A stretch of 50,311 bases of DNA from Candidatus Latescibacterota bacterium. GTDB taxonomy: Bacteria; Latescibacterota; UBA2968; GCA-2709665. Shown here piece by piece: positions 10,302 to 34,154 of this stretch. Both the position numbers and the translations under genes were made by a program. The DNA lies in NCBI GenBank assembly GCA_963662665.2, contig CAXXJS010000026.1, positions 1 through 50,311 of the forward strand. The letters are read 5' to 3'. The number at the start of each line of letters is the position of its first letter. Position 1 is the stretch's first letter. Below the pieces are notes generated by a model. The model was not told the origin of the DNA, ran no database searches, and saw only the letters and a program-made list of their open reading frames with translations.

Positions 10302-11386
10302 TGTCTTGTCCCATGAATTAGTTCAAAAAGTCTAGTAATCTTGTCAAGGATCGATTCTGCGGTGGCGGTCCAGACGAACGGTTGTGAGTTGGTGTTGTAA
10401 TGGTTAGTGAAATCCTGAATGTTGGCGATGAGGTCTTTCACCTTCTTGAAGGTCCCGCGTCGGATGGCTTTCTGGGTAATGATACCGAACCAGATCTCGA
10501 CTTGGTTGAGCCAAGACGCGTAGGTCGGTGTGTAGTGAACGTGATATCGGGGCCTGGCTGCGATCCAGCGTTTGATTTTTTCGTGTTTGTGCGTGGCGTA
10601 GTTGTCGACGACGAGATGAATGTCAAGGTCCTTCGGGACGTTTTGGTCGATATATTTGAGGAATTGCAGGAATTCCTGGTGTCGATGTCGGGGTTTGCAT
10701 TGGGCCAGCACCTTGCCGGAAGCGACCTCTAGTGCGGCGAACAAGGTCGTGGTGCCGTGCCGGATATAATTGTGGGTCACCCCTTCCACATAGCCCAACC
10801 CCAAAGGCAATATCGGCTGCGTTCGTTCCAATGCCTGGATCTGGCTCTTTTCGTCAACGCATAATACCATCGCGTTGTCGGGAGGGTTCAGATACAGGCC
10901 GACAATGTCACGTACCTTCTCGACAAAGAACGGATCATTGGACAGCTTGAAGTGTTTTTGCCGGTGCGGCTGTAGACCAAACGCTTTCCACACGCGCTGA
11001 ACCGTAGACTTGGACAGTTGCGTCTGGGCCGCCAGAGAGCGGCAGGTCCAATGGGTGGCTCCCGACGGCTTGTCTTTGAGCGTTGTATAAATCAGCGCGG
11101 CGATGCGCTCATCGCTGATCGACCGGGGCCCCCCGGGGCGCAATTCATCATAAAGCCCCATCAGACCTTGTTCTAAAAACCGACGGCGCCACTTCCCGAC
11201 TGTGGCTCCCGACAGACCAAGCTGTCGTCCAATCTGCTGATTCGACAGCCCTTGATCACTCATCAGAACGATCTTCGCCCGACGTACATGACTGTGCGAC
11301 ATGCTTCTTGAACGGGAAATCGTTTCCAATTGTGCCCGAACCTCATCCCCAATACTCAGTGGCGCTAACGGACGTCCCCTGGCCAT
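10298..11386 (-). CDS. IS630-family transposase
   Basis: N-terminal HTH; DDE motifs CVDEKSQIQAL, VVDNYATHK, SWLNQVEIWF; YIRHGTTTLFAAL. Confidence 0.97.
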   Translation of the reverse strand: MARGRPLAPLSIGDEVRAQLETISRSRSMSHSHVRRAKIVLMSDQGLSNQQIGRQLGLSGATVGKWRRRFLEQGLMGLYDELRPGGPRSISDERIAALIYTTLKDKPSGATHWTCRSLAAQTQLSKSTVQRVWKAFGLQPHRQKHFKLSNDPFFVEKVRDIVGLYLNPPDNAMVLCVDEKSQIQALERTQPILPLGLGYVEGVTHNYIRHGTTTLFAALEVASGKVLAQCKPRHRHQEFLQFLKYIDQNVPKDLDIHLVVDNYATHKHEKIKRWIAARPRYHVHYTPTYASWLNQVEIWFGIITQKAIRRGTFKKVKDLIANIQDFTNHYNTNSQPFVWTATAESILDKITRLFELIHGTRH

Positions 11387-11462
11387 AGATTCCTCCTTTC
11401 GCTATAAGAAATCTATGGCAAATAAACTATTTTTGCAAGTTATTCCTGGGACAGAACACTAG
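10298..11462 (-). mobile_element. IS630-family insertion sequence
   Basis: TIRs ctagtgtcttgtcccatgaat and revcomp ctagtgttctgtcccaggaat; inserted at a CTAG (TA) site. Confidence 0.93.
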
Positions 11463-14400: not shown

Positions 14401-14704
14401 CCGTCGGCGTGATGTTCGTCACCGAAAAACCGTTGTGCGAGTTGTATATCACGATCGGATATCGGTCCTTCAACGTATACTTCAAATCACGCTCCAAATG
14501 CACCAGCGCCCGCTCAGCCTCCTTCGCCGCAAACTCCGCAGCAGGCTGAGACGCCTTGTCGAAATATACCTTGAAATGCTCCGTCTCCAGATAGTGCCAG
14601 TCGTAATCGTCATACGTTACCTTGTTCTTGCCGAAATACTCCTGACCGACAGCTATACCATAGGTGAACAAGGCTATGCCAAAGAGAAGGGGCCACCTGA
14701 GCAT
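11459..14704 (-). CDS. Omp85/BamA-TamA-family protein with an N-terminal zinc metallopeptidase (MA-like) domain and a PD40/TolB-like beta-propeller
   Basis: AAGGAG before ATG 14704; signal peptide; HELAH and WIAEGVAEY; repeated WSPDG; barrel with PLRG loop and AGYGLGVRV...FRYDLAWP; terminal F. Confidence 0.88.
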   Translation of the reverse strand: MLRWPLLFGIALFTYGIAVGQEYFGKNKVTYDDYDWHYLETEHFKVYFDKASQPAAEFAAKEAERALVHLERDLKYTLKDRYPIVIYNSHNGFSVTNITPTEQSEFTGGFTEFAQGRVVIPYTGSYGDFRHVIHHELAHVVTLEMWTGGGWLGAMMTQAATLPPLWIAEGVAEYLSQEGWDREGDNFMRHATITGYVPGIMALSGAFAYKGGQSVFVMIEEEYGKDKVAEFISSFRSARSVDKALKASVGEGVEELDEKWQLWLKRQYWNEINLHHPSEEVAKQLTEAGAGRGFYNIAPSFSPQGDKIAYVTERQGTFDIYLMSAIDGQDLGRLVEGERSSDFEGLFVLRPGITWSPDGKQIAFAAKSRNKNTLYTLDVRKKRVTKRFKFDLDGLFEPTWSPDGKEIAIVGLKDGWSDVYVVNVLDESLRRMTRDPYDEKHLDWSPDGEWLAISSDRPSADLTYDGSKDFVFGTYDVFVIRADGSGIRRVAESDANDSHPTWGPDSQKLAFVSDRTGVGNIYIAHVDGSPAYPITNLLSGARYIDWSADGKKVAFTTFHRGGYDIFVMKDPLKQKRGMEDLPLTRYAKRLAGIEDRPFVELQRERRQEEVKAIAATDSGGGGAEQDTAVVAAADRKVETWMSDQMALAAAEARGDDDDGDGADTLATDGDRDLTLRDWNKEFTVSKYNVKLKPEFFGANAGFDTFYGVSSLVQLSLTDVMGDHRVIIQTGLSFSLKDSDLFLGYQNLKHQTNFYLSAIHTRLFFFDSGQLNADRYFGAEASLIRPFSRFSRMELGTRVIRISRERLERERYDNRWVRRGFTGSSLRGLSGTEVDSRGAAVSHLSLVGDNSLMSGFGAVDGRRMRLGLEGSWAGMRFGAVNVDLRQYMLALGEYTFAFRLSGGTSFGPNKRVYFVGGVNNPVNPNFSTFANVNQDRIFFSSFVWPLRGVELFELAGDSYVLANAAFRFPLIRELAMGWPLPLFFQNVQGELFLDVGGAFDRARWRHGWVARDGGFELNVPQHFRDGQSRHGLDEPQMAAGYGLGVRVNMGYFLFRYDLAWPTDFAQTYHPHQYFSIDMTGHF

Positions 14705-14924
14705 TTGCAAGCTCCTTAATTTGTCAACATGCCCTTGTGATACCGTATCGCGCGGGAATTTGGATGGAAACATCCGCTTTTTCGTTGGAACCCGTGCCAA
14801 CGCCCGCCGAGTTCGGTACATGCGGCAGTACTATCTGTCTCAAGCGAGGTATTATTGACATCGGCGTCCGGCCCCGGAATACCGGCCTCGGACCGGATGC
14901 GATTTTTCAAAGGGCCGTTAAGTT

Positions 14925-16951: not shown

Positions 16952-17854
16952 ATGAGCATTTTCATTGATAACAATACTCGGGTTGTGGTGCAGGCGATTA
17001 CCGGCACGGAGGGCTCGTTTCACACGCGTCAGATGCTGGACTTCGGCACGCGAATAGTCGCTGGGGTTACGCCCGGCAAAGCCGGCGATCGCGTCGAGGG
17101 CGTACCGGTTTTCAACACCGTGTCCGAGGCCGTGGATGCAACCGGGGCCGACGCTTCGATCGTATTTGTGCCGGCGGCGTTTTCGGCGGACGCCATTATG
17201 GAAGCCTCTGATGCCGGTCTCGGCCTTGTCGTGTGCATCAGCGAAGGCATCCCGGTCCTGGACATGGTACGGGTTAAACACTACCTCGGTTCGCGTTCCA
17301 CCCGGCTCATCGGTCCCAACTGTCCGGGAATTATCGCTCCCGGAAAATGTAAAATCGGAATCATGCCCGCCGAAATTCACCGGAGCGGAAACGTCGGTGT
17401 CATTTCCCGCAGCGGAACCCTCACCTACGAAGCCGTCGCACAACTGACCGCCCTGGGTTTCGGTCAATCCACGTGCGTGGGTATCGGGGGAGACCCCATA
17501 ATCGGAACCAGCTTTATAGATTGTCTGGAAGCTTTCGGTGAGGATCCGGAAACCGACTGCGTCGTCATGATCGGCGAGATCGGAGGCGCCGCCGAAGAAC
17601 AGGCCGCCGACTACGTGAAGGGTTCTTTCCGGAAGCCCGTCGTGGGGTTCATCGCCGGCCAGACCGCGCCTCCCGGCAGGCGCATGGGTCACGCCGGCGC
17701 CATTATTTCAGGCGGCAAGGGCACGGCCGAAGAAAAGGTGGCGGCCCTGGCCGCCGCGGGTATTCGGGTCTGCAGCAGCCCGGCCGAAATCGGAGAAACA
17801 GTACTTGAGGTCCTGGGCGACGGAACTGAACCGGCAACGGCCCGGACAGCCTGA
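16952..17854 (+). CDS. sucD: Succinyl-CoA synthetase alpha subunit
   Basis: [33 protein letters not shown], active-site RMGHAGA. Confidence 0.98.
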
Positions 17855-17894
17855 TTCGGCTTCGGTACCGACTTGAGAATGTGTTACAAATGTG

Positions 17895-17923
17895 TTGACA
17901 ATTGAAGAATTGTTAATTATCTT
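17895..17923 (+). promoter_or_regulatory. Sigma70 promoter of the OMP-TBDR-CTD-PorV operon
   Basis: TTGACA-17 nt-TATCTT in an AT-rich stretch; aatgtgtt direct repeats run into the -35. Confidence 0.7.
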
Positions 17924-18051
17924 CTGTCGAATACCCTGCCCTTGTGTTCTTAATTACGAGCCTTTACGTTTCAACGGGCGGCTTATGTTAAATTGCTACC
18001 GCGTAGTTAATTGTTTCAAGTACGACAGGTTTGAAGCAGGAGAGGGTTAAC

Positions 18052-18088
18052 GGGCGCTGACCGATTCAGGACAGGTGTGCCCTTTTTT
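18052..18088 (+). terminator. Terminator-like hairpin inside the 5' leader (possible attenuator)
   Basis: Imperfect stem gggcgctgacc...ggacag(gt)gtgccc followed by T6. Confidence 0.4.
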
Positions 18089-18232
18089 GTGTCTGAGAGG
18101 GGGTGAAGGTTCCGGCAGACTGCGGGTGTTTTTTTAGACGTAGATTCAAAGGTTGCAGTTGTTTCAGCGGCGGATCGCAGAGTTGCATCAGGGTGGTGGG
18201 GAAAAGTCATCTTCCAATGCAAGGAGGTGTAT

Positions 18233-18931
18233 ATGAAGGTGTTCAGGGTTGTTGGCCTGTTGATTCTGGTTTTTGCGGTTTCAACCTGGCCTGCAGTCGC
18301 CCAGGAGGGAAATTGGGGAGTCGGCGTGTTTGCGAATTACAACGTGCCGGTCTTTGGCCTTGGCGACTGGTACGACAACGATTCCAAGTTCGGATTGAAC
18401 GCGGCCTACGTGCCGGCGTCCAACGTTACCGTGGAGATGGAGTTTCACCACGGCAATTTCACCGACGGGAGCCTGCTGACGCGCACGTTCACCTGGACCG
18501 ACGGCAATGCCTACACCAGCCCGAACGCGGCAAGCAATATGAGCCTGAACAGTCTGCTGGTAAACGCGCTCGTCCGGCTGCGGCAGATCGGGAAGCCGTT
18601 CGCCGCCAGCAGTTTCGCTCCTTACGTCGCGGTGGGCGGCGGCTTTTATCGGTATAAGAACGACGTCAGCGGGTTGCTGTGGCCCGGGCAGACGGGTGAT
18701 CTGGTTCTGGAACTGGAACCGTTCACAGACGAGCGGTACGCGCTCGGGATCAACGCCGGACTGGGCGTGGAAGCGTTCGTGATCGAAAACGTGGCCGTGG
18801 ACCTTCGCGCCAGGTATAATATGATGATTGGGGACCTTCGGAGCATGGAAGACTGGGAGATTTCCGAAACTTTCCCCCTTCAGATGCTGGACTTCGGAGC
18901 CGGGGTTAAATTCTATTTCAGCGGGAAATAG
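18233..18931 (+). CDS. Small outer-membrane beta-barrel (OmpA/OmpW-like porin family)
   Basis: RBS AAGGAGG; signal peptide AVA; FAPYVAVGGG, LGINAGLGVE, VDLRARY, FGAGVKFYF strands. Confidence 0.88.
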   Translation: MKVFRVVGLLILVFAVSTWPAVAQEGNWGVGVFANYNVPVFGLGDWYDNDSKFGLNAAYVPASNVTVEMEFHHGNFTDGSLLTRTFTWTDGNAYTSPNAASNMSLNSLLVNALVRLRQIGKPFAASSFAPYVAVGGGFYRYKNDVSGLLWPGQTGDLVLELEPFTDERYALGINAGLGVEAFVIENVAVDLRARYNMMIGDLRSMEDWEISETFPLQMLDFGAGVKFYFSGK

Positions 18932-18962
18932 CCGCGGAATCTTTTCGGAGGAGGATTTTCAG

Positions 18963-21900
18963 ATGAGTAGAAGGATGTTGTTTATCGCTATGCCGGTCGC
19001 GCTTTCTGTGCTTGTGGCTTTCACCGCAGGTGCGTTTGCGGGCACAACCGGCAAACTGACCGGTCGCGTCATGGATGCCGCGTCCGGCGAACCGCTGCCG
19101 GGCGTGAATATCGTCATAGACGGCACGCGCAGAGGCGCACAGACGGATGCGGACGGATATTACCTTATCCTTTCGGTCGATCCCGGCAATATTACGCTCG
19201 TAGCGTCAATGGTCGGCTACAACGCGGTTTCGCAGACGGACGTGGTGATACACGCCGACTTCACCGCGACCGTCGATTTCCAATTGAGAGAAACCGCGCT
19301 GGAAGCCGAGGAGCTTGTGGTCACGGCGGAGCGCCCGCCGGTGGAGCCCGACAAGACCACCAGTCATTACGTAATGAGCGCCGAGCAGTTGGAATCGCTT
19401 CCCATGGCGCGTTCGGTCACCGACCTGGTCGCATTGAATCCGGGCGTGCAACTGACCAACGCCAACGTCATCCGGGGCGGCGATTCGAGAGACGGTATCC
19501 TGATGGTTGACGGCGTGGTCCTGCCGAACAACGACGGCTACGGCCGGCAGTTCACGGGCCCGTCCAAGACCGCGGTACAGGAAATCACCGTGATTTCCGG
19601 CGGGGCAAGCGCGGAATACGGAAACCTGGAATCGGGCGCTGTGTCGATTATCACGAAAGACGGCGGACGTGACTACCGAGGGTGGGGCGATTTCCGCTAT
19701 ACGCCTCCAAGCCAGAAGCACTGGGGCTCCAACCTCTACGAAAGCGCGTATCACCGCGACAGGCTAAAATGGGACGACCGCGAGTGGCGTGCCGAAACGG
19801 TGATCCTGAGCGACGGCGAGGATGGCGTTCCGGGAACACCGGACGACGAGGTGGGTCTGGCGCATAATGCGGTAGACTATACCGAAGTGAAGGGTTCCTA
19901 TATCGAGGGTGGAATTTCGGGGCCGATGGGCGACCAGGCCAGTTTCTTCGCCAGCGCCAGGTGGACCAGGCAGCCCACCGACGTGTTGAACACGTCCGTT
20001 CGCAACGCCACGTTCGACCCGAGCCTTGGCGCCACCAGCCTCATCAGTGTGATGTCAGGCGGGTTTCCCACGCTGGATACGCCGCTGGATTTCCGTGGGA
20101 ACGCCAAGCTGACGTTCCGCCCGGGGGCTGACGCCAAAGTCAGCATCGGGCAGATCTACTCCGTGGCGGAATATTACAATAGAGGAACGAACACCCAGCG
20201 CGACAGGGCGTCCAACGGTCAGAATATCTTTCTGCCCGAGGGGTCCGGCGCGGGCGGACGCAAAGTTTCCGACCGGGTCACCTATGCGTCACTGACCCAT
20301 ACGGTATCTCCAAAGACCTTTTACGAAGCCAGAGTGTCGTTCTACACAACCCTTGAAGATACGCAGGATACCAACTGGCCGAAGGACCAGTTCGGATTCC
20401 CCGTAACGTTATTTGGCGAGAAGGACCTGGACGGCTGGTTCAACGTGAAGCCCAACTACGTCGCGAATTATACCATCGCGGACCGGAGCCGGCTGAACCT
20501 CAAGCTCGATGTGTCCTCGCAGGTCACCAAGGGACACTTTGTAAAAACGGGCGTGGATCTCACCCGGTTCAGCATCTATTACCTGAATTATAACGCGCCC
20601 AATCCCAGCCAGCGGATCGTGGACTTCATCACCCATTCCGGCAATCTGCCGGACGTGAAAGCCCCGATCAACCCCCTTCAGATCGGATTCTATCTGCAGG
20701 ACAAGATGGAGTTCGAAGGGATGGTGTTGAACGCGGGCATCCGTTTCGACGCGCTCTACACCAATCACCGGTTCTACAACGTTTCGCAGCTTCAGACGCC
20801 GCAGAACCGGTGGCTCATCAAGCACGTGGATATGGTCACGGTCGATCCGCAGTGGGCAACCCAGTTCAGCCCACGTTTCGGGATCTCTCATCCCATCACG
20901 CAGCGGTCGGCTTTCCACTTCACGGCCGGAATGTACGCCAAGGTTCCCGATCTGTTTGAGTTCTTCCGCGAACAGTGGCGGGCCAACGGCCCGGACGCCC
21001 ACGTGGCCTGGGATGCGTTCCGGGGTCTGCACGGGCAGGTCCGGATGGCGAACCCCTACGTTTCTCTTACACGTACCCGGGCTTACGAAGCTGGCGCCGA
21101 TTGGAACTTCGTGGCCGACTATACGGCGGGTATGGCGGCATATTACAAGAGCGCAATCGGAAAGGTCAACTCCGGAAGCCGGTACTGGTACGAGCCGCAG
21201 CGGAGTACCTGGGTCTGGGGCCGAAAACCCAGCGGTTTCCAGGACATGAGAGGGTTCGAGTTGCACGTGCGCAAGGGTTTCAGCCATTACTTCTCGTTCA
21301 ACGCGGCCATCAACTTCGGCTGGGCGTCTTCGGCGCGCGTGGGCTCCAACGCCACCATGTTCTACCCGGATTCCTCGTACGTGATGAATCCCGATCAGTA
21401 CCACGACTGGGAATGGAACGGATCCCAGTACGTGCGCAAGGACTTCACGCTCGAAGAGCGGATGGTTCTCGCAACGCGGGTGGCCAGCTGGTGGCGGGGC
21501 AGGGCCAGAGCCATCACCAACAGCTATCAATACGTGGTCTTCGAGTTCATGGATATCCAGAAGGCCTACGACGCGCCCGCCAATATGAACGGCGTCTGGC
21601 AGCCCACCTACGGTGGCGGGCGGTTGTTCAACCCCAAGGGTTCCGACCTGCGCGTCCAGTCGAGTCTTTCGCTTTATCTGGACACGCCCATGGACTTTGG
21701 CCCCGGGTTGCGGCAGTTCCACGCAGTGGGCGGCCTGCGCGCCAATATGGTCTGGCGTATCCAGAGTGGCAGTCCCCTGTGGTACACGCCGCCCGGCAAG
21801 CAGCCGGAGTTGCGCCACAGGCCCATCCGCACGTGGACAGACCTGCAGGTTGAGAAAACGCTCGTGGAGGGCGGGCATCGGAACGCCGTCTTCTACGTGG

Positions 21901-22088
21901 AAGTCTTCAACCTGTTTAATCAGCAGGACAGCCCGGTCGGCGGCTCCTATCCCGATTACGTCCGCTGGGGTCTGAACGTGCCCAGGCCGAATGACCAGGA
22001 CTATCTGGACTACGGGGACTACAACGAGTTGACCCGGTACTACGGAAAGCCGCGTGAGTTGGGGGTTGGTCTGAAAGTCAACTTCTAA
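18963..22088 (+). CDS. TonB-dependent receptor with an N-terminal carboxypeptidase-regulatory-like domain
   Basis: AGTTGKLTGRV...GEPLPGVNI, TonB-box-like EELVVTAERP, plug IRGG..VDG..SAEYGN, YLQDKMEF, FSPRFGISHP, NLFN, C-terminal GLKVNF. Confidence 0.95.
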   Translation: MSRRMLFIAMPVALSVLVAFTAGAFAGTTGKLTGRVMDAASGEPLPGVNIVIDGTRRGAQTDADGYYLILSVDPGNITLVASMVGYNAVSQTDVVIHADFTATVDFQLRETALEAEELVVTAERPPVEPDKTTSHYVMSAEQLESLPMARSVTDLVALNPGVQLTNANVIRGGDSRDGILMVDGVVLPNNDGYGRQFTGPSKTAVQEITVISGGASAEYGNLESGAVSIITKDGGRDYRGWGDFRYTPPSQKHWGSNLYESAYHRDRLKWDDREWRAETVILSDGEDGVPGTPDDEVGLAHNAVDYTEVKGSYIEGGISGPMGDQASFFASARWTRQPTDVLNTSVRNATFDPSLGATSLISVMSGGFPTLDTPLDFRGNAKLTFRPGADAKVSIGQIYSVAEYYNRGTNTQRDRASNGQNIFLPEGSGAGGRKVSDRVTYASLTHTVSPKTFYEARVSFYTTLEDTQDTNWPKDQFGFPVTLFGEKDLDGWFNVKPNYVANYTIADRSRLNLKLDVSSQVTKGHFVKTGVDLTRFSIYYLNYNAPNPSQRIVDFITHSGNLPDVKAPINPLQIGFYLQDKMEFEGMVLNAGIRFDALYTNHRFYNVSQLQTPQNRWLIKHVDMVTVDPQWATQFSPRFGISHPITQRSAFHFTAGMYAKVPDLFEFFREQWRANGPDAHVAWDAFRGLHGQVRMANPYVSLTRTRAYEAGADWNFVADYTAGMAAYYKSAIGKVNSGSRYWYEPQRSTWVWGRKPSGFQDMRGFELHVRKGFSHYFSFNAAINFGWASSARVGSNATMFYPDSSYVMNPDQYHDWEWNGSQYVRKDFTLEERMVLATRVASWWRGRARAITNSYQYVVFEFMDIQKAYDAPANMNGVWQPTYGGGRLFNPKGSDLRVQSSLSLYLDTPMDFGPGLRQFHAVGGLRANMVWRIQSGSPLWYTPPGKQPELRHRPIRTWTDLQVEKTLVEGGHRNAVFYVEVFNLFNQQDSPVGGSYPDYVRWGLNVPRPNDQDYLDYGDYNELTRYYGKPRELGVGLKVNF

Positions 22089-22099
22089 ACGAATTAATG

Positions 22100-22132
22100 T
22101 AACCGGGGGGCTTTTTTTCCGGCCCCCCGTTA
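22100..22132 (+). other. Intra-operon stem-loop
   Basis: taac(c)ggggggc-tttttttccg-gccccccgtta between the TBDR and the CTD-protein gene. Confidence 0.55.
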
Positions 22133-22152
22133 ATCGAAAGGGAGAAGCAAGT

Positions 22153-24540
22153 ATGAGACCAGGCATCAAGCTTGTGGCGCTTGTTTGCGGCTTGCTCCTG
22201 CCGGTGGGCGCCTGGGCCGTAGACCAGAGCGACACACCGAGGCTTTCCACCAGCCGGAGCCACGTCCAGGTCAGTTGGAACGTGGATGGAACCATGGCCG
22301 GGTGGAACCTTGGAAGCGGGCAGACCGGAGAACCGGATATGTTCTGGTATCCCGGCTGGGCCAATATCCCGAGCAGCAACGCCAGTTCAAACTACACCCG
22401 TCGGGGCGGCAACGCCGTTGGATTCGGCACCTGGATCATGGTGGTGGGGCCAGGCGGCGTGGATGCGGCATGGACAGGCCCCAGGGGCAAGAGCGTCGGT
22501 ATCGTACCGATGGTCTACGACCCGTCCAGCGGGCCCGAGGCGGAACTCGGTGCGGCGACGGAGTGGGAGCAGGGACGTTCCGGGTCGTTTTCTCCGGCCA
22601 GCAACTATTGGCCCGACGCGGTCGTGCCCGACGAGATGGACACCAGCGCACCCCCCAGACTCATCCATAACTTCTCGCCCGGGGAATACACGCCGGACGA
22701 TGCGTTTGCGGAAGAGATTCTGGTCACCAGGTGGAACAACAAGTTCGACATCACGATAACCCGGAAGGTGCATAACTGGGCCCATCAGATGTTCGACGAT
22801 TTCGTGATTGTTGAATATACGCTGGAAAACATCGGCAGCGATCGGCATAACGAGGTGTACCTGCCTCTGGTGGCCACGTGGAAAATCAACGAGACGGCCG
22901 ACAATAACACCGGCGGCGGCCGCTGGTGGCGATGGTTGGATGAAGGTCTCGACGACAACTTCCGCTACACGGAAGCCGGAAACTACGTAGACGGCGGTCC
23001 CGGCGGCCCCGCGTTCATCAGCGCGGCAGATGCGCAGGGACTCAAGTTGAGCTATCAGTTCGATGGCGACAGCCCGTTCAAGGCCTGGGAAGATACCGGC
23101 GATCCGTGGATCAAGGACATCGAGACCTCCGATCTGAAGGAGATGGCCTTCCCCGACGGTAAGCTCGCCTCCCATTCATTCGTGGGCCTGGCGCCGATCG
23201 CGTTCGCCGACAACGCGGCCGACCCGAGACATTCGTTCAATATACACGACGCGGGCCAGTACGTACAGCCCGAGGAAGACCAGCCGGTCTACCAGGGCTG
23301 GTGGAACGTACGGACCACGGCCGACTACGACGAGCCCGTCCTCGAGGGGGAGACCCCGGCGGAGGCCTTCGCCAAGTTGACCGCAAACACAGCCCAGGAC
23401 AACCCCACCGACGTGGGCGGCTTCACGAACGCGCAGGTGTACGGTCCCTGGGCGCTCGGCCCCGGCGACAAGGCCAAGGTCGTGGTGGCCTACGTGGCCG
23501 GCTCCGGCGCCGAGTATGCCGGTCCCGGCAAGAGCCCCATAGACATCTGGCAGTGGTCGCTCACTGCCGACAAGGCCAGTTTCCTGTCGGGCGAACAGGC
23601 GATTGTCGAGCACCTGGAACACGCGATTTTCGCCTATCAGAGCGGCTTTGATATTCCGGATTCGCCTCCGGACGTCGACGTCTACGTAAAGAGCGACGAG
23701 AACGCAAAAGTGAAGCTGTTCTGGGCCGCCGAGGCCCAGGGCGCCGTTCATCCGGACTTCGGTGTTGCCGACGTGGCCGGGTTTCGCATTTACCGCGGAC
23801 TGAGGGGTACTCTCACCGCTACCGGTCCGTTTTCGCTGGTTGGCGACATTCCCGTGGGCGGACCCCTTCCCGCCGGTGTTACGTACGACGCCGCCGCAGA
23901 CTGGCCCGTGGCCGCCGCAGAGTCCGACGAAAACAGGGCGGGGTCGCTGGCGATCGAGGCCAGCGAGGGCCGGCGCGCGGATCGTCCAGGAATGTACGGC
24001 TGGTCAGACGCGAGTTCCAACGCCGGATTTTTCTATTACTACAGCGTACGTGCTTATCAGGAACCGCACGACGACTGGGTGAACAACGACGGCACGATGA
24101 CTTTCGAGGATCTCCCGCCCAGGGCGAAGAAGTTTCTGCAGAATGGGCAGGAGGGTCCGTTCTCCAACTTCCTGCAGGTAAACAGCGGGTCGCCGGTGCT
24201 GCCGTTCGTAGCGGCCGCCGACGCGTTGGAACGCGATATCGTTGTGGTGCCGAACCCATACATGGCCAATGGCACGAACGAGTACGGCGGCGGCCTGAAG
24301 ATCAGGTTTGTGAACGTGCCGTCCAACTCGTTCATTTACATTTTCAACACTGCCGGGCAGCTGATTCAGGTACTGCGTCAGAAGGCCAATGCCTCCAGTG
24401 AGACCAGTTGGACCGGCCGTCCCTATTCCACAATCCGGGCGCTTGTGGGTCCGGGAATCTATTTCTATGCCGTGCATGGCGTTGAAGGTTCGGCAGGCGC
24501 CGGAAAGATCAAGACCGGCACGTTTGTGGTGATCCGTTAA
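22153..24540 (+). CDS. Large secreted protein with an FN3-like domain and a T9SS-type C-terminal sorting-like domain
   Basis: Signal peptide; PDSPP..V...VKLFW...AGFRIYR...YYYSVRAY; C-terminal VVPNPY..IRFVNVP..IYIFNTAGQLI..W..GIYFY.V..KTGTFVVIR. Confidence 0.88.
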   Translation: MRPGIKLVALVCGLLLPVGAWAVDQSDTPRLSTSRSHVQVSWNVDGTMAGWNLGSGQTGEPDMFWYPGWANIPSSNASSNYTRRGGNAVGFGTWIMVVGPGGVDAAWTGPRGKSVGIVPMVYDPSSGPEAELGAATEWEQGRSGSFSPASNYWPDAVVPDEMDTSAPPRLIHNFSPGEYTPDDAFAEEILVTRWNNKFDITITRKVHNWAHQMFDDFVIVEYTLENIGSDRHNEVYLPLVATWKINETADNNTGGGRWWRWLDEGLDDNFRYTEAGNYVDGGPGGPAFISAADAQGLKLSYQFDGDSPFKAWEDTGDPWIKDIETSDLKEMAFPDGKLASHSFVGLAPIAFADNAADPRHSFNIHDAGQYVQPEEDQPVYQGWWNVRTTADYDEPVLEGETPAEAFAKLTANTAQDNPTDVGGFTNAQVYGPWALGPGDKAKVVVAYVAGSGAEYAGPGKSPIDIWQWSLTADKASFLSGEQAIVEHLEHAIFAYQSGFDIPDSPPDVDVYVKSDENAKVKLFWAAEAQGAVHPDFGVADVAGFRIYRGLRGTLTATGPFSLVGDIPVGGPLPAGVTYDAAADWPVAAAESDENRAGSLAIEASEGRRADRPGMYGWSDASSNAGFFYYYSVRAYQEPHDDWVNNDGTMTFEDLPPRAKKFLQNGQEGPFSNFLQVNSGSPVLPFVAAADALERDIVVVPNPYMANGTNEYGGGLKIRFVNVPSNSFIYIFNTAGQLIQVLRQKANASSETSWTGRPYSTIRALVGPGIYFYAVHGVEGSAGAGKIKTGTFVVIR

Positions 24541-24570
24541 CGAACCTCGCGACGTTTAAGGAGAATTGCT

Positions 24571-25614
24571 ATGAAAAAAGGATGGATCATCTTGGGATTG
24601 GCCCTCGTGACCGTCGCTCTCCTGTCCGTGGAGCCAACGTGGGCGGTAGAGCAGCCCGCGCCCGGCGCCGGATCGCGCGACGGGGCGTTGATCGATCCGA
24701 AGATGGAGAACGTAGACAAGGCGTGGGGCCTTTGGGTCGAGCGCGTGGGACTCTCCGAGTTCCCGTTCCTCAAGATCGGCCAGGGCGCACGCGCCGAAGC
24801 GATGGGCGGTGCTTATACGGCCATTGCGGACGATATCTCTTCGGCGTTTTGGAACGCCGCGGGCCTGGGGCACGTCGAAAACGTGGGCTATACCCTGAAC
24901 TATACCCGCTGGTTGGCCAATTCTTCACTTGTGTCGGGGGCGCTGGCCTTCAACGCGGGATTCGGGGTTATCGGGTTTACGGTCACCAGCTTCGCGGCTG
25001 AAGAATTCGAAGTCACAACGCCCACGGCCCCCTGGGGCACTGGCACCATGGCGCAGGTGGGCGATATTGCCCTCGGCGCGGTCTTTGCGAAGAAAATGAC
25101 CGACAAATTCATGCTGGGCGGTCAGATTCGCTGGATCCAGGAAGATCTTCACCTGGAAAAGGTGTCCACACTGGACTATAGCATCGGCACCCACTTCTAC
25201 ACAGGGTACCGGAGCAGCAGGATCGCCATGAGTTTTCGGAACCTGGGGCCGAACGTCAAAGCAACGGAGGGCGGTTTCACGGCGGCGATGCCCACCACCT
25301 ACTCCCTCGGCGGAGCGATGGAGATTTTCGGTCAGAAGGGCGATCCCGGATACTTCACGCTCTCGCTCGAGCACGAGTTTGTGACGGACTTCCGTCCGAT
25401 CACCCGCGTGGGCGGGGAACTCTGGCTGGAGAACACGCTGGCGCTTCGTGCGGGTTACCGGACGCATACGGCGCTGGAAAGCTGGAGCGTCGGCGCTGGC
25501 CTGAAGCACGAATTGGCGGGCGGTCAACTGATTACCGTCGATCTCTCGTATCATAACGCGGATCTGGGTATTTTCGATGCTCCGCTGCGACTGTCCCTAG
25601 GCGGGACGTTCTAG
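24571..25614 (+). CDS. PorV/PorQ family outer-membrane beta-barrel
   Basis: FLKIGQGARAEAMGGAYTAIADDISSAFWNAAGL; LALRAGY; C-terminal LRLSLGGTF. Confidence 0.92.
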   Translation: MKKGWIILGLALVTVALLSVEPTWAVEQPAPGAGSRDGALIDPKMENVDKAWGLWVERVGLSEFPFLKIGQGARAEAMGGAYTAIADDISSAFWNAAGLGHVENVGYTLNYTRWLANSSLVSGALAFNAGFGVIGFTVTSFAAEEFEVTTPTAPWGTGTMAQVGDIALGAVFAKKMTDKFMLGGQIRWIQEDLHLEKVSTLDYSIGTHFYTGYRSSRIAMSFRNLGPNVKATEGGFTAAMPTTYSLGGAMEIFGQKGDPGYFTLSLEHEFVTDFRPITRVGGELWLENTLALRAGYRTHTALESWSVGAGLKHELAGGQLITVDLSYHNADLGIFDAPLRLSLGGTF

Positions 25615-25637
25615 GAGCGGAATACTCGGTAAACATC

Positions 25638-25675
25638 AAGGGGGGGCGGTCCGTCGGATCGTCCTCCTTTCTTGT
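25638..25675 (+). terminator. Rho-independent terminator of the TBDR operon
   Basis: aagggggggcggtcc-gtc-ggatcgtcctcctt followed by tcttgtt. Confidence 0.7.
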
Positions 25676-25694
25676 TGTAGGTGAAACAATGAAG

Positions 25695-25765
25695 CACTCA
25701 GCAGTCAGTTTTCAGCAGTCAGCTTGAAGCAAAAATCAGCTCACACGGAGACACAAAGACACAAA
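25695..25765. repeat. Short heptamer and octamer tandem repeats
   Basis: cactcag cagtcag ttttcag cagtcag; cacacgga gacacaaa gacacaaa. Confidence 0.65.
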
Positions 25766-25790
25766 AGGAACCCGGAAACACCCGAAAGGC

Positions 25791-25815
25791 GGGCAACCAC
25801 AAGGGTTGCCCCTAC
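25791..25815 (-). repeat. GTAG-type REP element
   Basis: Revcomp GTAG-gggcaacc-cttgt-ggttgccc: GTAG foot plus a perfect 8-bp palindrome. Confidence 0.8.
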
Positions 25816-26443
25816 GAATACAACCATGGCGCGGTCGTAGGTTCCGCGCTTTATCGTCAAGTATTGTAAATATATCGAACCTCGCGCTGTCCAGTCGCGC
25901 GCTCGATTGTGAGGATGGGGGTTTTTCCACGCAGATCCGTCCAGCACCGAAGCAACGGGGGGTCGTATTCGTACGAAGGTCACAAATCGCCGGTCTACGC
26001 CACTGACGAAATTCGTGGAAAAACCGGCTCCGCGCCGAGCGGCGCCCTTCTTTTTCGCCCGTTTTCTTGGGCGAAGCAAGAAAAAGGGCAGGGGAAAGGG
26101 GGACGTTATGGGGGTGGGGGAGAATTTTTGATAGAAAAGGAAAGTTGACGGGAGAGTTAAAGCCTGAGTCGGCCCGGAACGCAGTTGGGAAGTACCTCAA
26201 GAGGGAAGAGAGGAGACGTGAGAGGACCACATCCGAACCCGCCGATCTCGCATCCTCATCGAAATCCGTTTCTCTTTGATTATTGCGAGAGTCCGTCCCG
26301 CAGGTCTGGATTTTCTGCAACCAATTCCGCCTGCGGGCATCCTAATGGTATCGGTTACTGAACCATAGTTCCACCTGCTGCGCCTCTGTGACGAGCGGCG
26401 CGGTTTGCCATATTGGCGCCATCCTGAAGAGAGGAAGATAACG

Positions 26444-28846
26444 ATGTACCGGATTCGAACACGGACGATGGTGGCCTGGCTTGCGGGACTGACCCTTTTG
26501 CTGACGGTAGGACTGCCTGCTCGTGCCGAAGAAAAGGCGCCGCAGGGGGCCGCGGATTCGACCGCTGTTCCTGCAACCGACCTGGAAGTCCAGCGCGCCG
26601 TACGGGTGTACTGGCCGCAATTGACCGGGGATCCGGCCGGTCACAACACCCGGGTCGGGTACGCGCGGTTGCTGAAGGCGGATTTGTCCGGGGCCAGCGA
26701 GGCGTTCCAGTCGGCCCTTTCGCAGAACGACGGGTTTGCGCCGGCGCACTTCGGTATGGCGCTGGCGTCCTACCGGTCCGGGACGGCGGAGGGAGAAAAG
26801 GGAAGATTCTCCGAGCAGACGATCTACCATGCGTCACGGGCGGCCGTGCTCTCACCGGGGTTTGATTTGACTCACCGGCTTCTGGGGCGGCTTTATTCCG
26901 ACATCGAGGACTACGACACGTCTCTGGACGCCTATGTGCGCTCCCTTTCCGTGGAGCCGACGCGCGACCCTGCCGTGCTTAAAGCCGTGGTAACAACCTA
27001 CATTCGAACGGGTGTGTTTGAGGACTTGCCCTCGGAGACGCTGGATTCTCTGGACGTGACGACGGACGAGGGGTTGTTGTTGCCCGTGCTGGCGCAGGCC
27101 TGTGCGAGCCGGAAAGCACTGGATCTGGCCATGCAGTACTATGGCCGGGGGTTTTCCAGGATGCCGCCTGAGGAACGACAGTTTTATCAGGACGTACACC
27201 TGATTGCATCCAGCGAGGAGCTTCTTGCCTACCGGGCGACCGCGGACGATCCGGCGGCGCGGAGGGAATTTCTGGTAAGATTCTGGTCCGTTAGGGACCC
27301 GGACCTGATGACTGCCGTGAATGAACGCAAGTTGGAACATTATCGCCGGGTGTGGTATTCAAGGACCGGATTTTCGGAAATGGCACACCCTTGGGACCGT
27401 AGGGGTGAGGTCTATATTCGATACGGCACTCCTGATTATCGATCGACTTCGGGCTCGGTGGCGCCGTCGATGCCGGTTGCCGTGGAACGAATCAAGGAGC
27501 GTGTCGCCCACGACATCTACGGTCCCCTGGGCATGGCCGGCGTGGGCCGGGGTCCCGTATACCCGATCCGGCGCATGCACGAGGTGGGTCTGGATTTTCC
27601 CTTTGAGCTACCGCCGGGTACCGACCAGGGTGAGGCTCCGGATCCGCTGGAGGTAGAGTTGGGGGCGCCCGCTCTGGAGGACGAGCCCCTGGCGCCCGCG
27701 GACATGTCGGCGCTGGATGGAGACAACTACGAAGTGACCCTGTCGCCGAACCGCACGCAGGCGGCGGGAGGGGACTTCATGTCGTTCATTAAATGGGAAT
27801 CATGGGTGTATACCGGTGTTGGCGGGGGGATTGAGGTCGTGTTTACTAACGAGTGGGGGGGTGGGAAATTCGACTTTGCACCCGTGCCAGCGGCGGCATT
27901 CGACGACGGCGCTCTGCGGCGGACAAGCAGGATGGTGAAATTCTCGCCGGCGATGGTGGTGAACCGGAGCATCCGGCAGATGCCCGAGCACTATCTGCCG
28001 GGCGGCCGCGAGGCATTTCTGGATTTCTACTACGATCGGGCGACTTTTCGAGGATCCAATGGAAAAACGAGGGTAGAGGTCTACTACGGTATTCCGCCGC
28101 GCAGTCTAAAAGAATCGGAATCGGAGGAACAGCCGGTGGTCCAGATGGGTTGCGCGGTTGCCCTGTACGATACCGAAACCGGACAGACGCTGCACGACAG
28201 CGAAGAACTGGTATTGCGCACGTCGAAGGACCTATATACAGGAAAGGGCACCTTCATTCCGAATCAGCTCGCGCTGGACGTGAGTCCGGGCGCCTACGAT
28301 ATGCGGGTACAGGTCAAAGACCTGATTTCCGGCCATTCGGGCATCTACAAAGAAAGACTCGAAGTTGAGGATTATTCCCTGGATACGTTGAAGCTGAGTG
28401 GGCTGGAATTGGGTTTCAAGGTATCCACGGAGGGTGGCCTGGAGAAATACGACAAAGGTGGTGGCATCTGGGTGATTCCGATGACAACCAAGACCTATCG
28501 GATGAACCAGCACCCGTTTGTATATTACGAAGCATACGGCCTGACGGCGGACACGTTCGGTCAGTGCCGGTTTACGTTGCATTATACGATCCATTCGATG
28601 CCGGAGAAGGGCGGCACGTTCGGACGGCTTTGGTCGGGCGTGGGCGCACTCTTCCGCAGGGGCGAACGCAACCCTGAGGTATCTGTATCCACGGAGCAGG
28701 TCCGGGAGGATACCGATCTGCAGGAGTATTTCGAAATGGATCTCAGTAACGCCAAATCCGGGGTGAACCGGCTGACGGTTCGCATCGTGGACCAGAATGG
28801 CAACGTGGAGGCGGAGAAGGAGGTCCTGTTTAAGTTGGAGCGGTGA
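26444..28846 (+). CDS. TPR plus GWxTD-domain protein
   Basis: Signal peptide; TPR-like helices; FLVRFWSVRDPD...NERKLEHYRRVWY...PWDRRGEVYIRYGTPD; WESWVY; Ig-like C-terminal domains. Confidence 0.9.
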   Translation: MYRIRTRTMVAWLAGLTLLLTVGLPARAEEKAPQGAADSTAVPATDLEVQRAVRVYWPQLTGDPAGHNTRVGYARLLKADLSGASEAFQSALSQNDGFAPAHFGMALASYRSGTAEGEKGRFSEQTIYHASRAAVLSPGFDLTHRLLGRLYSDIEDYDTSLDAYVRSLSVEPTRDPAVLKAVVTTYIRTGVFEDLPSETLDSLDVTTDEGLLLPVLAQACASRKALDLAMQYYGRGFSRMPPEERQFYQDVHLIASSEELLAYRATADDPAARREFLVRFWSVRDPDLMTAVNERKLEHYRRVWYSRTGFSEMAHPWDRRGEVYIRYGTPDYRSTSGSVAPSMPVAVERIKERVAHDIYGPLGMAGVGRGPVYPIRRMHEVGLDFPFELPPGTDQGEAPDPLEVELGAPALEDEPLAPADMSALDGDNYEVTLSPNRTQAAGGDFMSFIKWESWVYTGVGGGIEVVFTNEWGGGKFDFAPVPAAAFDDGALRRTSRMVKFSPAMVVNRSIRQMPEHYLPGGREAFLDFYYDRATFRGSNGKTRVEVYYGIPPRSLKESESEEQPVVQMGCAVALYDTETGQTLHDSEELVLRTSKDLYTGKGTFIPNQLALDVSPGAYDMRVQVKDLISGHSGIYKERLEVEDYSLDTLKLSGLELGFKVSTEGGLEKYDKGGGIWVIPMTTKTYRMNQHPFVYYEAYGLTADTFGQCRFTLHYTIHSMPEKGGTFGRLWSGVGALFRRGERNPEVSVSTEQVREDTDLQEYFEMDLSNAKSGVNRLTVRIVDQNGNVEAEKEVLFKLER

Positions 28847-32070: not shown

Positions 32071-32186
32071 GAGGTGTCCGGGTGTTAATCCTCCCGGCCG
32101 GCTGCGGGATTCGCAAATTCCGGTCTCAACGGCGCAGGAGCGATAAGCGATGCATTGGATTGCCCCAAAACGGAAGGAAGTGCATT

Positions 32187-34154
32187 GTGTCTGAAGCTTC
32201 ACCGGTCGTCCTTTCCACGGATTCGACGGCGCAGACTCAAGGGCAGGCGGTGACGCTCCGCAGCGTTCTCCTGGCCGGGGCACTGGCCGTTGGGGTGAAC
32301 GTCGTGGTGAATTACGTGGAGTACGTTGTACACGCGTCGCGAATGACGCTGAGTCATTTTCCGATGGGTACACTGCTGCTCTACCTCCTGCTTGCCCTGG
32401 GTCTGAATCCACTATGCCGATTACTTGCGCGTCAATATGCACTTTCGTCAACGGAACTGCTGGTGGTGCTGGCGGGTGGTTTAGTCGGTGGGGCGATTCC
32501 GTCTGTAGGTCTGACGGGGTATTTCCTGGGAGCAATCGCTGCGCCGTTCTACTTTGCGACACCGGAAAATCAGTGGGGAGAGTTCTTCCATCCCTATATT
32601 CCGCACTGGCTGGCGCCCAGAAACACCAACGGTACGTTGAATCATCTGTTCGAGGGTCTGCCGCCGGGCGATTCCATTCCCTGGAACGTCTGGTTCGTGC
32701 CGGTGGTGTGCTGGATGGGCCTGATTACCGCCCTGTTTTTCGGTTCCGTCTGCCTGGCGGTGATTCTGCGAAAGCAGTGGGTGGAGAGCGAACGCCTGTC
32801 GTTTCCGATCCTGCGTCCTGTCACGGACCTAACGGAACGTGCCGGGTCATTGGAATTCCCCCGGCTCTTCTGGATTGGCTTCGCCGTCGCGTTCGGCATC
32901 CTGGCCTGGAATATGATTAACTATTTCATACCGGGATTTCCCCAGGTTCCCAATATACGCTGGGGACCGTGGATCAAGTTCGAACGGTATTTCCCGGGAT
33001 TGTGGACCAGGATTAATATGTTTACAATCTCATTTTGCTATTTCGCCAATATCGACGTGTTATTCAGCCTCTGGTTCTTCGACCTGCTGTTTATCATCCG
33101 AAGCGGCATCTTGAACCGGTTGGGATACAATGCCAGTTCGTGGGCCCACGCCTCGGGTGATTTTCAGTGGCTGCCGCTGGGCGCCTTTTTTGCGATGGTC
33201 GGCTGGGGGGTGTGGACGTCCCGAGACCACTTAAGGCAAGTTGTCCGGAAAGCGCTGGGGAGAGCATCGCCGCTGGACGATTCCGAGGAAATGATGTCCT
33301 TCCGGACGGCCGTGGTCGGGCTGGTTGTATGTGTCCTTTTTGCGGTGTTCTGGTGGTGGCAGGCCGGAATGAGCCTTGTTCTCGCGTGTGCGTTCATTCT
33401 TGCAACATTCGTGCTCTATCTGGGTGTGTCCCGTATCGTATCCGACGTGGGATTGGTATTCATCAGCATGCCCGTAGGTCCGCAACGCTTTGTCACGTCG
33501 TTGTTCGGATCGCGGAATCTGTCGGGATCCAGTCTGACAACGCTGGGATTCACGAACGGCATTGCGTCCTACGGCAAGGGCCTGTTCATGCCGTCGGTCA
33601 TCCACGGGGCGAAACTGGCGGACACCTGCCCCGGAGACGGGCGGCGGCGGGTACTTGCGGCTTTGCTGGCGGCGTTCGGAGCAGGGTGCGTGTTTTCGAT
33701 TGTGTACACACTGTACCTCGGTTACACCTACGGCGCCTTCAACTTCAACGACTATCCATTCGCCCGCTACAGCAAATCCGGCTTTGCCGGTGTATTGACC
33801 CGGATGAACAACCCGGAGCCGCCCGACCAATTGCAATTGAGCCTGTTCGGCATTGGCGCGGCGGTGATGTCGTTGTTGACGTTCCTGAAGTACCGGTTTC
33901 CGTGGTGGCCCTTCCATCCCGTTGGATTCGCGCTGGCCGGAACGGGGACGTCTGTGCGGTATACCGTGTTTTCAGTCTTTCTGGCCTGGGCCATCAAGTT
34001 TCTCATACTGCGAATTGGCGGCGCGGCGCTTTATCGACGTTACGTGCCGTTTTTCCTGGGCGTGCTCGTGGGCTATTCCGCCGGCGTGGGAGTTTCGTTG
34101 ATCGTGGACATGGTCTGGTTTCCGGGTGGCGGGCATTCAATCCACGGGTATTGA
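32187..34154 (+). CDS. Polytopic membrane protein, DUF6785/DUF6784-type (OPT/YSL-like putative peptide transporter)
   Basis: Many TM segments; ATPENQW, IPHWLAP, IPWNVWFVP, LRKQWVESERLSFP, WWPFHPVG, PFFLG. Confidence 0.82.
   Translation: MSEASPVVLSTDSTAQTQGQAVTLRSVLLAGALAVGVNVVVNYVEYVVHASRMTLSHFPMGTLLLYLLLALGLNPLCRLLARQYALSSTELLVVLAGGLVGGAIPSVGLTGYFLGAIAAPFYFATPENQWGEFFHPYIPHWLAPRNTNGTLNHLFEGLPPGDSIPWNVWFVPVVCWMGLITALFFGSVCLAVILRKQWVESERLSFPILRPVTDLTERAGSLEFPRLFWIGFAVAFGILAWNMINYFIPGFPQVPNIRWGPWIKFERYFPGLWTRINMFTISFCYFANIDVLFSLWFFDLLFIIRSGILNRLGYNASSWAHASGDFQWLPLGAFFAMVGWGVWTSRDHLRQVVRKALGRASPLDDSEEMMSFRTAVVGLVVCVLFAVFWWWQAGMSLVLACAFILATFVLYLGVSRIVSDVGLVFISMPVGPQRFVTSLFGSRNLSGSSLTTLGFTNGIASYGKGLFMPSVIHGAKLADTCPGDGRRRVLAALLAAFGAGCVFSIVYTLYLGYTYGAFNFNDYPFARYSKSGFAGVLTRMNNPEPPDQLQLSLFGIGAAVMSLLTFLKYRFPWWPFHPVGFALAGTGTSVRYTVFSVFLAWAIKFLILRIGGAALYRRYVPFFLGVLVGYSAGVGVSLIVDMVWFPGGGHSIHGY

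Follow-up and report, generated by a model that had tools for sequence, protein, structure and literature searches.

A cassette of four co-directional genes lies at 18233-25614 on the + strand of the 50,311-nucleotide stretch of Candidatus Latescibacterota DNA analysed here (contig CAXXJS010000026.1; the whole stretch, with a G+C content of about 58%, is called the window). It encodes a small outer-membrane β-barrel, a TonB-dependent transporter, a secreted protein of 795 residues (P795) and a barrel of the PorV/PorQ family (PorVL). We propose that this cassette is the outer-membrane core of a Latescibacterota glycan-utilisation locus, in which P795 is docked on PorVL by an uncleaved PorZ-like tail and captures glycan for the transporter. 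We place the probability of this reading at about 0.5. An earlier reading, made from the sequence alone, had described P795 as a substrate-binding lid held on the surface by its cognate PorV-like barrel, an alternative to SusC/SusD that repurposes type IX secretion system (T9SS) components. That interpretation is supported in part by the results below. The tight spacing it described was confirmed, with gaps of 31, 64 and 30 bp between the four genes. Each start codon is preceded by a GGAG-type ribosome-binding site, and each gene encodes an N-terminal signal peptide.

P795, its C-terminal tail and the PorVL barrel

The Sec signal peptide of P795 ends at AWA/V. The sole cysteine of the protein lies within the hydrophobic core and is not conserved in aligned relatives, indicating that there is no lipobox and that P795 is not a lipoprotein, as had been read from the sequence. 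No Pfam family matched P795 above its cut-off, and none matched at all in the first ~500 residues. The Pfam and NCBIfam matches were weak and confined to the tail (CHU_C, E 0.012; TIGR04183, E 0.0076). An exhaustive search returned 294 relatives at E <= 1e-3 and 46 at E <= 1e-30, the latter mostly of 740-840 residues; a word-indexed search with a 44-sequence P795 profile added three distant, longer proteins only. The closest DNA and protein relatives of the window are Latescibacterota metagenome-assembled genomes (MAGs), and P795 is 90% identical to an NCBI protein labelled 'Candidatus Latescibacteria' and 90-91% identical to its counterparts in eleven MAG loci. When residues 24-500 were compared with the ESM Atlas, only unnamed clusters were found; their commonest taxa (Bacteroidota, Zixibacteria and Fidelibacterota) provide a lead only. 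The family profile found no sequence match in the PDB at E <= 10.

An AlphaFold2 model of P795, built from a 44-sequence alignment, reached a mean predicted local distance difference test (pLDDT) score of 87.5 and a predicted template-modelling score (pTM) of 0.89. It consists of a β-rich region (residues ~30-500), a long helix, an FN3-like domain (~505-640) and a seven-strand C-terminal sandwich. Foldseek comparison of this model with the PDB gave weak local matches only (E 7e-7 to 1e-4; query template-modelling score, TMq, ~0.2), and these were to the N-terminal β-sandwich parts of GH94, GH116 and GH149 enzymes and of a cyclic glucan synthase. PorZ appeared at rank 30 of the same search with a probability of 0.47, which is not meaningful. 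SusD or enzyme Pfam families were matched by 0 of the 44 family members at E <= 0.1, and SusD was found neither among the 29 open reading frames (ORFs) of the window nor among 47 ORFs flanking the cassette in 8 of 9 representative loci. By sequence and predicted structure, P795 is neither an ordinary SusD nor a recognisable enzyme; either outcome would have counted against the sequence-only reading.

At relaxed E-values, the tail of P795 resembles a T9SS C-terminal domain (CTD) across the family. CHU_C was matched by 19 of the 44 full-length relatives and TIGR04183 by four. The PorZ model NF052228 was matched by eight, solely at positions 663-757 of its 757, which correspond to the PorZ CTD (best E 1.2e-7). 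Among 19 tails compared separately, 15 matched CHU_C and 9 matched Por_Secre_tail (PF18962) at E <= 0.1. The tail alignment displays PNP, GxY and C-terminal K/R motifs, which we take to be those named for T9SS CTDs. A model of the tail alone has seven strands (pLDDT 79.8), and its best PDB match is PorZ (5m11; E 1.6e-4, TMq 0.59, 26% identity), with the RemZ CTD in the SprA-PorV translocon (8gl8_D) at rank 4 and PorU (6za2) at rank 10. Since the remaining matches are generic Ig-like domains, the fold match is a moderate one. These family-level matches and the predicted fold support the assignment of the P795 tail as a T9SS-type CTD with the PorZ CTD as its nearest relative, in agreement with the CTD-like tail noticed earlier. 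P795 is not a PorZ, its model having no β-propeller body; the tail does not reach the TIGR04183/PF18962 cut-off that defines a type A CTD; and the locus does not combine a CHU_C score above cut-off with a PorP/SprF neighbour, as a type B system would.

The gene that follows P795 had been called a PorV paralog, and its product belongs to the same family by score. PorVL matched NF033709 with 157 bits (cut-off 90), its residues 63-345 covering profile positions 3-324 of 326, and Pfam PorV PF19572 with 41.3 bits (cut-off 27). It stays below the models for individual members of the family (PorV NF033710, 62.6 vs 250; PorQ NF033711, 63.9 vs 220; PorV2, 34.2 vs 325). Its sole PDB relative is F. johnsoniae PorV (E 1.2e-4). 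UPF0164 matched at E 5.5e-4, and no match to PF03349 (FadL/Toluene_X) was found on PorVL of the window at E <= 0.1. The second PorV that had been placed at 6960 was recovered as ORF 6960-7907 (+), with 110.8 bits against NF033709 and 25% identity to PorVL; its best named match is the 'PorV2' model (96 bits, cut-off 325), and it may be a housekeeping carrier. This ORF follows an L,D-transpeptidase-like gene (5759-6385), and its 3' end overlaps a long era ORF. ORF 6070-6963 was considered as the second PorV and rejected, as it matches no family and bears no likeness to PorVL; the true gene is 6960-7907.

In known systems, a CTD binds the loops of a PorV-family barrel on the SprA translocon, as set out in the accessible text of PMC10994853. 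Binding of the P795 tail to PorVL was modelled with PorVL residues 25-347 and P795 residues 500-795, using 19-row alignments from the same loci. The pair scored 0.88 (0.88, 0.86 and 0.88 in three runs) against 0.00 for the best of 3 controls. When the tool was calibrated, 58 of 80 solved complexes came up to this mark, as did 2 of 110 mismatched pairs; these figures apply only roughly here because our own alignments were supplied. The three runs share at least 80% of contacts, with a partner pLDDT of 71-74. Almost all of the predicted interface on P795 lies in the tail (697-795, plus 625-626) and includes the invariant residues P700, N701, P702, Y711, R718, G735, G768 and F791. On PorVL it comprises eight segments, including the invariant W114, T150, G156 and P241. 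The model supports binding between PorVL and the tail, as likeness rather than proof, and agrees with the pairing that had been suggested.

The transporter, the small barrel and the conserved gene order

The transporter, whose length is counted from an MSRRML start inside ORF 18828-22088, matched CarbopepD_reg_2 (75.3 bits) and Plug PF07715 (39.7 bits, cut-off 23.9). No Pfam barrel family matched its barrel region at E <= 0.1, and its C-terminus reads ...KVNF. The SusC/RagA model TIGR04056 gave 55.7 bits against a cut-off of 368.25, and solely over the N-terminal residues 31-221. As a single sequence the transporter had no PDB match. The PDB matches of an 18-sequence profile were limited to plugs (FepA, Cir and the like) and carboxypeptidase-like N-terminal domains, among them an 85-residue 'SusC homolog' N-terminal domain; no full-length SusC chain was matched. 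A conserved ...VVxAERPP... stretch stands ahead of the plug domain in 18 relatives and may be a TonB box. Judged by sequence, the transporter is not SusC. The description of the cassette as 'SusCD-free' was correct, though the transporter is not to be taken for a SusC that lost its SusD. The small barrel matched PF13505 OMP_b-brl with 35.9 bits (cut-off 28.7), its look-alikes in the ESM Atlas are OMP_b-brl clusters, and it has no PDB relative by sequence at E <= 5.

By scanning 185,579 species genomes with two peptide patterns from the close P795 family, we obtained 54 related loci (L001-L054), whose gene order was scored by searching their ORFs with the four proteins of the window. The order small barrel, transporter, P795 and PorVL was present in 48 of the 54 (47 by ORF search, and L017 by tblastn as Ns hid its ORFs), confirming the conserved synteny that the sequence-only reading had asked for. 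In four loci (L013, L014, L026 and L054) contig ends cut the cassette, and the genes that are left are arranged as expected; L052 has transporter, P795 and PorVL but no detectable small barrel; L053 has only frameshifted pieces of transporter and P795. Counted by neighbour, PorVL lies directly 3' of P795 in 53/54 loci, the transporter gene directly 5' of P795 in 52/52 loci with upstream sequence, and the small barrel immediately 5' of the transporter in 48/54. The same order recurs in paralogues at ~30-35% identity.

Most of the loci are labelled Latescibacterota; some are labelled Gemmatimonadota or unclassified 'uncultured bacterium', and one, the frameshifted fragment, Gammaproteobacteria. 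Loci with Gemmatimonadota or 'uncultured bacterium' labels include ones ~91% identical to Latescibacterota loci. Seven Gemmatimonadota-labelled MAG loci were seen (L001, L004, L007, L017, L019, L023 and L051). Because L001, L004 and L007, which share the cassette type of the window, are ~91% identical to Latescibacterota-labelled loci, the phylum labels of these bins are probably at odds with current taxonomy. The fragments in the MAG labelled Gammaproteobacteria (L053:1-3504) are 40-70% identical by segment and come with no PorV-like gene; a pseudogene, a faulty assembly or wrong binning of the contig could explain them.

Grouping P795 at identities of at least 45% gave five cassette types with 16, 15, 13, 2 and 2 members, and transporter identity gave groups of the same sizes. 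In the FastTree tree of each of the four proteins the five types come out as clades, supported at 0.98 or above except for PorVL of type C; for type E, which has two members, two of the four trees give no support value. Pairwise-identity matrices of the four proteins are correlated (Pearson r >= 0.98; Spearman 0.41-0.57). Four cassettes occur on one chromosome, OZ244937.1 (L012, L040, L047 and L052), and two on each of eight others; these copy numbers are lower bounds, since divergent copies escape the two search patterns. Cumulatively, the four genes have been duplicated and passed on as one unit.

Glycan-related surroundings and flanking signals

The genes around the cassette give its likely substrate class. 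Flanks of the representative loci encode GH4 enzymes, xylose-isomerase-like TIM barrels, GFO/IDH/MocA oxidoreductases, an SSF symporter and sulfatase parts, as well as a PcRGLX-like protein, a Rha78A-like Ig-domain protein, LacI, a polysaccharide deacetylase and FG-GAP/UnbV proteins. The window itself encodes a sulfatase, an FGE-sulfatase enzyme and sugar oxidoreductases. This make-up looks like that of a polysaccharide or glycan utilisation locus, with enzymes that differ between cassette types, and it is from this context that a substrate-binding role of P795 would follow. A saccharolytic lifestyle deduced for the phylum Latescibacterota fits this context (PMC4454575); in the accessible text of that report, TonB-dependent import is mentioned only for vitamin B12 and iron. 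Downstream of the cassette, successive genes at 39376-43454 (+) encode an FGE-sulfatase-type enzyme, a protein with NHL repeats and a sulfatase, a hint that the substrate of this cassette type may be a sulfated glycan.

The DUF6785/DUF6784 protein encoded in the window has ~12-13 hydrophobic segments and is a candidate inner-membrane permease. It has relatives no more than 10 kb from the cassette in 34/54 loci, and in type-D cassettes (e.g. L024) they follow PorVL directly. Relatives of the TPR + GWxTD proteins (~820 residues) lie within 10 kb in 30/54 loci, and no mention of GWxTD was found in the literature searched. For the first of these proteins in the window, the likely start is a later Met that is followed by a signal peptide. 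The coordinates of all these features are collected in Table 1.

Table 1. Position and character of the cassette genes, neighbouring genes and putative signals in the window
Feature	Coordinates	Strand	Family match or remarks
Promoter match, sigma-70-like	17895..17923	+	TTGACA + 17 nt spacer + TATCTT; consensus match only
Conserved 5' leader	17980..18088	+	28-nt box (17980-18007) and terminator-like hairpin with T-run (~18052-18088)
Small outer-membrane β-barrel, 232 residues	18233..18931	+	Signal peptide; PF13505 OMP_b-brl
TonB-dependent transporter, 1041 residues	18963..22088	+	Signal peptide, CarboxypepD_reg-like domain, Plug, large barrel ending in F
P795, secreted partner, 795 residues	22153..24540	+	Signal peptide 1-22; β-rich ~30-500; FN3-like ~505-640; putative T9SS-type CTD ~695-795 (nt 24235-24537)
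PorVL, cassette-specific PorV/PorQ-family barrel, 347 residues	24571..25614	+	NF033709
Terminator-like hairpin 3' of the fourth gene	25638..25670	+	15 pairs, 8 G-C; weak T-run (CTTGTTGTAG); consensus match only
TPR + GWxTD-domain protein, 813-residue ORF	26405..28846	+	TIGR04514 GWxTD 50.5 bits (cut-off 28)
DUF6785/DUF6784 polytopic membrane protein	32082..34154	+	DUF6785 390 bits; DUF6784 82 bits
Second TPR + GWxTD protein, 1262 residues	35501..39289	+	

The four genes had been placed between one promoter and one terminator. Both sites proved to be the best of our consensus scan: the promoter-like site has 10 of 12 consensus matches and is the top site within 17700-26500, and the hairpin after the fourth gene is the best terminator-like site. 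The TTGACA is retained in aligned close orthologues. The scan found 6 promoter-like sites, compared with 2.6 +/- 1.8 in shuffled sequence. The description is nevertheless incomplete, because a conserved leader hairpin lies between the promoter-like site and the first gene. This hairpin is present in all 12 type-A close orthologues (window and L001-L011), with one-sided changes only and 0 compensatory pairs. The 28-nt box of the leader is found with at most 4 mismatches in the same 12 and is absent from L012-L017; the stretch separating box and hairpin varies among the 12. An Rfam scan of 17600-26500 gave nothing credible and no match for the leader, and the whole leader is no more stable than shuffled sequences (z +0.88). 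Box and hairpin could form an attenuator, a riboswitch-like leader or a small RNA gene.

Two further observations concern the other strand of the window. An unusual fusion of 1120 residues is encoded at 11459-14821 (-) and joins Peptidase_MA_2, PD40/TolB-like propeller repeats and an Omp85-like C-terminal part. A DDE_3 transposase with helix-turn-helix domains at 10298-11386 (-) marks an insertion sequence.

Proposed role, alternatives and known systems

In the route we propose, P795 would cross the inner membrane by Sec, for which the signal peptide and the absence of a lipobox are observed, and would then reach the cell surface in a CTD-dependent manner. Its PorZ-like CTD would be kept and docked on the loops of the adjacently encoded PorVL, the docking being predicted and the retention modelled on PorZ staying on PorQ and on type B CTD proteins staying on PorP/SprF. 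The tethered β-rich N-terminal region may lie beside or over the transporter and capture substrate; to judge from gene context, this is probably a glycan of algae or plants, and not the same one in every cassette type. The transporter would use TonB energy to import this substrate, whose passage across the inner membrane could fall to a DUF6785 or SSF permease encoded nearby. The small barrel may be a structural subunit.

Several results weigh against this proposal. The tail of P795 stays below curated cut-offs (TIGR04183, 16.2 bits against 23; CHU_C, 20.4 against 27 for the tail in the window), as does the best score of the PorZ model on the family (30.6 bits against 260). Searched over the 54 loci and the window (~1.15 Mb), the tail profile was found on no other protein at E <= 0.01 except for two weak hits (L021:3939-4814 and L018:2874-3707), so that the tail is not a demonstrated general sorting signal of the phylum. 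No recognised T9SS core family appeared in the Pfam results of the 29 window and 47 flank ORFs, SprA, PorKLMN and PorU not having been searched for, and no paper on T9SS in Latescibacteria was found. As PorV-CTD complexes have already been solved (8gl6, 8gl8 and others), the pass in complex prediction may reflect likeness; as close cousins of a true partner also pass, the score is no measure of specificity for the own barrel. The fold matches of the N-terminal region are weak, so that glycan binding by P795 is drawn from gene context. Several PorVL relatives carry PF03349 in precomputed annotation, and one relative bears the name 'long-subunit fatty acid transport protein' in one source. The congruence of trees, which the sequence-only reading had proposed to test, is seen in the five types, with one weakly supported clade and one discordance: the type-C clade of PorVL has a FastTree support of only 0.55, and in a 16-sequence IQ-TREE analysis PorVL of L040 groups with L033 (77%), its P795 lying inside type C (100%).

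A stricter version of our proposal, drawn by analogy with SusD on SusC, would have the PorVL-held P795 close as a lid over the extracellular face of the transporter in a stable four-protein complex that includes the small barrel as a subunit. The obligate position of the transporter gene immediately 5' of P795 in 52/52 loci, the parallel divergence of all four proteins, the failure to find SusD in window ORFs, flank ORFs or the P795 family, and the predicted docking of the tail on PorVL all fit such a lid. However, P795 is β-rich and unlike SusD, the transporter is not SusC-like by sequence, and Bacteroidota loci also encode surface binding proteins other than lids, and we consider this special case unlikely. 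A bolder formulation, which we also hold to be doubtful, would make the four proteins one machine in which P795, permanently plugged into its private PorVL by the PorZ-like tail, caps a non-SusC transporter with the small barrel as fourth subunit; Latescibacterota would then have glycan importers that use no surface lipoproteins and maybe no SprA. If true, it would be an independent solution to the job that SusD does in Bacteroidota.

Other explanations depart further from glycan capture. P795 might be a secreted or surface glycan-degrading enzyme of a new family that PorVL only shuttles or anchors: its first ~500 residues have no family, its alignment contains many invariant Asp, Tyr and Trp, fragments of glycoside phosphorylases and hydrolases are among its weak fold matches, and T9SS cargo of Bacteroidota often includes glycan-degrading enzymes. 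These fold matches, however, cover only non-catalytic N-terminal β-sandwich parts (TMq ~0.2), a catalytic domain or family was found in 0 of the 44 relatives, and so strict a pairing with a transporter would be more usual for a binding partner, which makes an enzyme improbable. That PorVL is instead a FadL-type channel for a hydrophobic or amphiphilic substrate, with P795 as an accessory protein, periplasmic or secreted, and its Ig-like tail no more than similar to a CTD, appears distinctly improbable to us. The accessible text of PMC12578637 treats PorV/PorQ barrels as FadL homologues, and the UPF0164 match (E 5.5e-4), the fatty-acid-transport annotation of some PorVL relatives and the sub-threshold tail scores point the same way. 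On the opposite side stand the NF033709 score of PorVL (157 against 90), the absence of a PF03349 match at E <= 0.1 on PorVL of the window, PorV as its only PDB relative, the PorZ CTD as the best fold match of the tail, a docking score of 0.88 against 0.00 for controls, and a gene context of sugars rather than lipids. A reversal of direction can also be imagined. Myxococcus Oar reportedly exports the protease PopC, and by analogy the transporter could carry P795 outward for PorVL to hold, making the cassette a self-contained surface-display device. Oar-type transporters combine a CarboxypepD_reg N-terminal domain with a large barrel, as the cassette transporter does; the T9SS core genes, which were not searched for, have so far not turned up, and within the 54 loci and the window the tail is carried by P795 only, barring the two weak hits. 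The nearby inner-membrane permease and sugar-catabolic genes point to import instead, and CTD-PorV logic as known needs SprA according to the accessible text of PMC10994853. We regard export as highly improbable.

Should P795 capture glycan on PorVL for the transporter as we propose, the cassette would matter in several respects. TonB-dependent glycan import has been worked out almost solely for SusC/SusD of Bacteroidota, and the cassette offers a concrete, testable candidate for SusD-less related phyla. It links TonB-dependent uptake and type IX secretion carriers, two fields usually kept separate, and extends the idea that a cognate barrel keeps a CTD from PorZ-PorQ and SprB-SprF to nutrient acquisition. 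With at least five diverged types in different sugar-enzyme contexts, P795 would lend itself as a marker of substrate specialisation in a phylum that is abundant, uncultured and polysaccharide-degrading. No description of the cassette or of its parts was found in the literature, subscription journals and supplementary files lying outside the search.

Among the closest known systems are the PorZ-PorQ and PorU-PorV pairs of the P. gingivalis T9SS attachment complex. The accessible text of PMC5562754 describes PorZ and PorU as held at the surface through PorQ and PorV, and that of a review (PMC10202324) describes the PorZ CTD as retained to bind PorQ and raises the idea that a CTD may be shielded from cleavage by its cognate PorV-like barrel. 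PorZ is the single T9SS protein known for retaining its CTD while seated on PorQ, a PorV-like barrel. Like these pairs, the cassette appears to place a secreted, CTD-keeping protein on a PorV/PorQ-family barrel, and both profile and fold place the P795 tail nearest to the PorZ CTD. Unlike them, P795 has no PorZ body, PorVL is equivalent to neither PorV nor PorQ by score, and the pair is multiplied per genome beside a TonB-dependent transporter in sugar contexts rather than being a single housekeeping copy. In type B systems (F. johnsoniae, P. gingivalis), a CTD cargo gene is followed by its own PorP/SprF barrel gene, which provides a dedicated carrier and surface anchor as described in the accessible parts of PMC9143113 and PMC12618676. 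The cassette shares this arrangement, and CHU_C is its commonest weak tail match; it differs in that its barrel is of the PorV/PorQ family, CHU_C stays below cut-off, there is no link to gliding adhesins, and a transporter and a small barrel belong to the unit. The sequence-only claim that T9SS parts are repurposed is less new than was implied, cognate CTD/barrel pairs being known (accessible text of PMC5562754, PMC9143113 and PMC12618676).

With SusC/SusD (RagA/RagB), the cassette has in common a CarboxypepD_reg + plug transporter gene followed directly by a partner gene, and a locus with glycan enzymes, regulators and inner-membrane permeases. The differences are the absence of SusD, a β-rich, non-lipoprotein partner that bears a putative CTD, a transporter that fails TIGR04056, and two extra barrels. 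PorV on the SprA translocon of F. johnsoniae (6h3i, 8gl8) is the only PDB relative of PorVL, and the CTD of RemZ is the fourth-best fold match of the tail. However, PorV is shared by all type A cargo, which it releases, whereas every cassette comes with a barrel to itself, and the complex prediction points to a stable 1:1 pair. BamG-BamH of the Bacteroidota β-barrel assembly machinery (BAM) offers a further parallel in which, as described in the accessible text of PMC12578637, a FadL/PorV-like barrel of 14 strands uses its extracellular loops to hold a surface protein within a larger outer-membrane machine. BamH differs in being a lipoprotein and the machine in being BAM. What is already known, then, is that cargo can stay on a cognate barrel with its CTD retained, as in PorZ-PorQ, in PorU-PorV and in type B proteins with PorP/SprF, and that a transporter can work with a surface partner (SusC/SusD). 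What is new is the fusion of both logics in one conserved four-gene unit that is found outside Bacteroidota in several diverged copies per genome and is made up of a non-SusC transporter, a P795 body of no known family, a private PorV/PorQ-family barrel and a small barrel.

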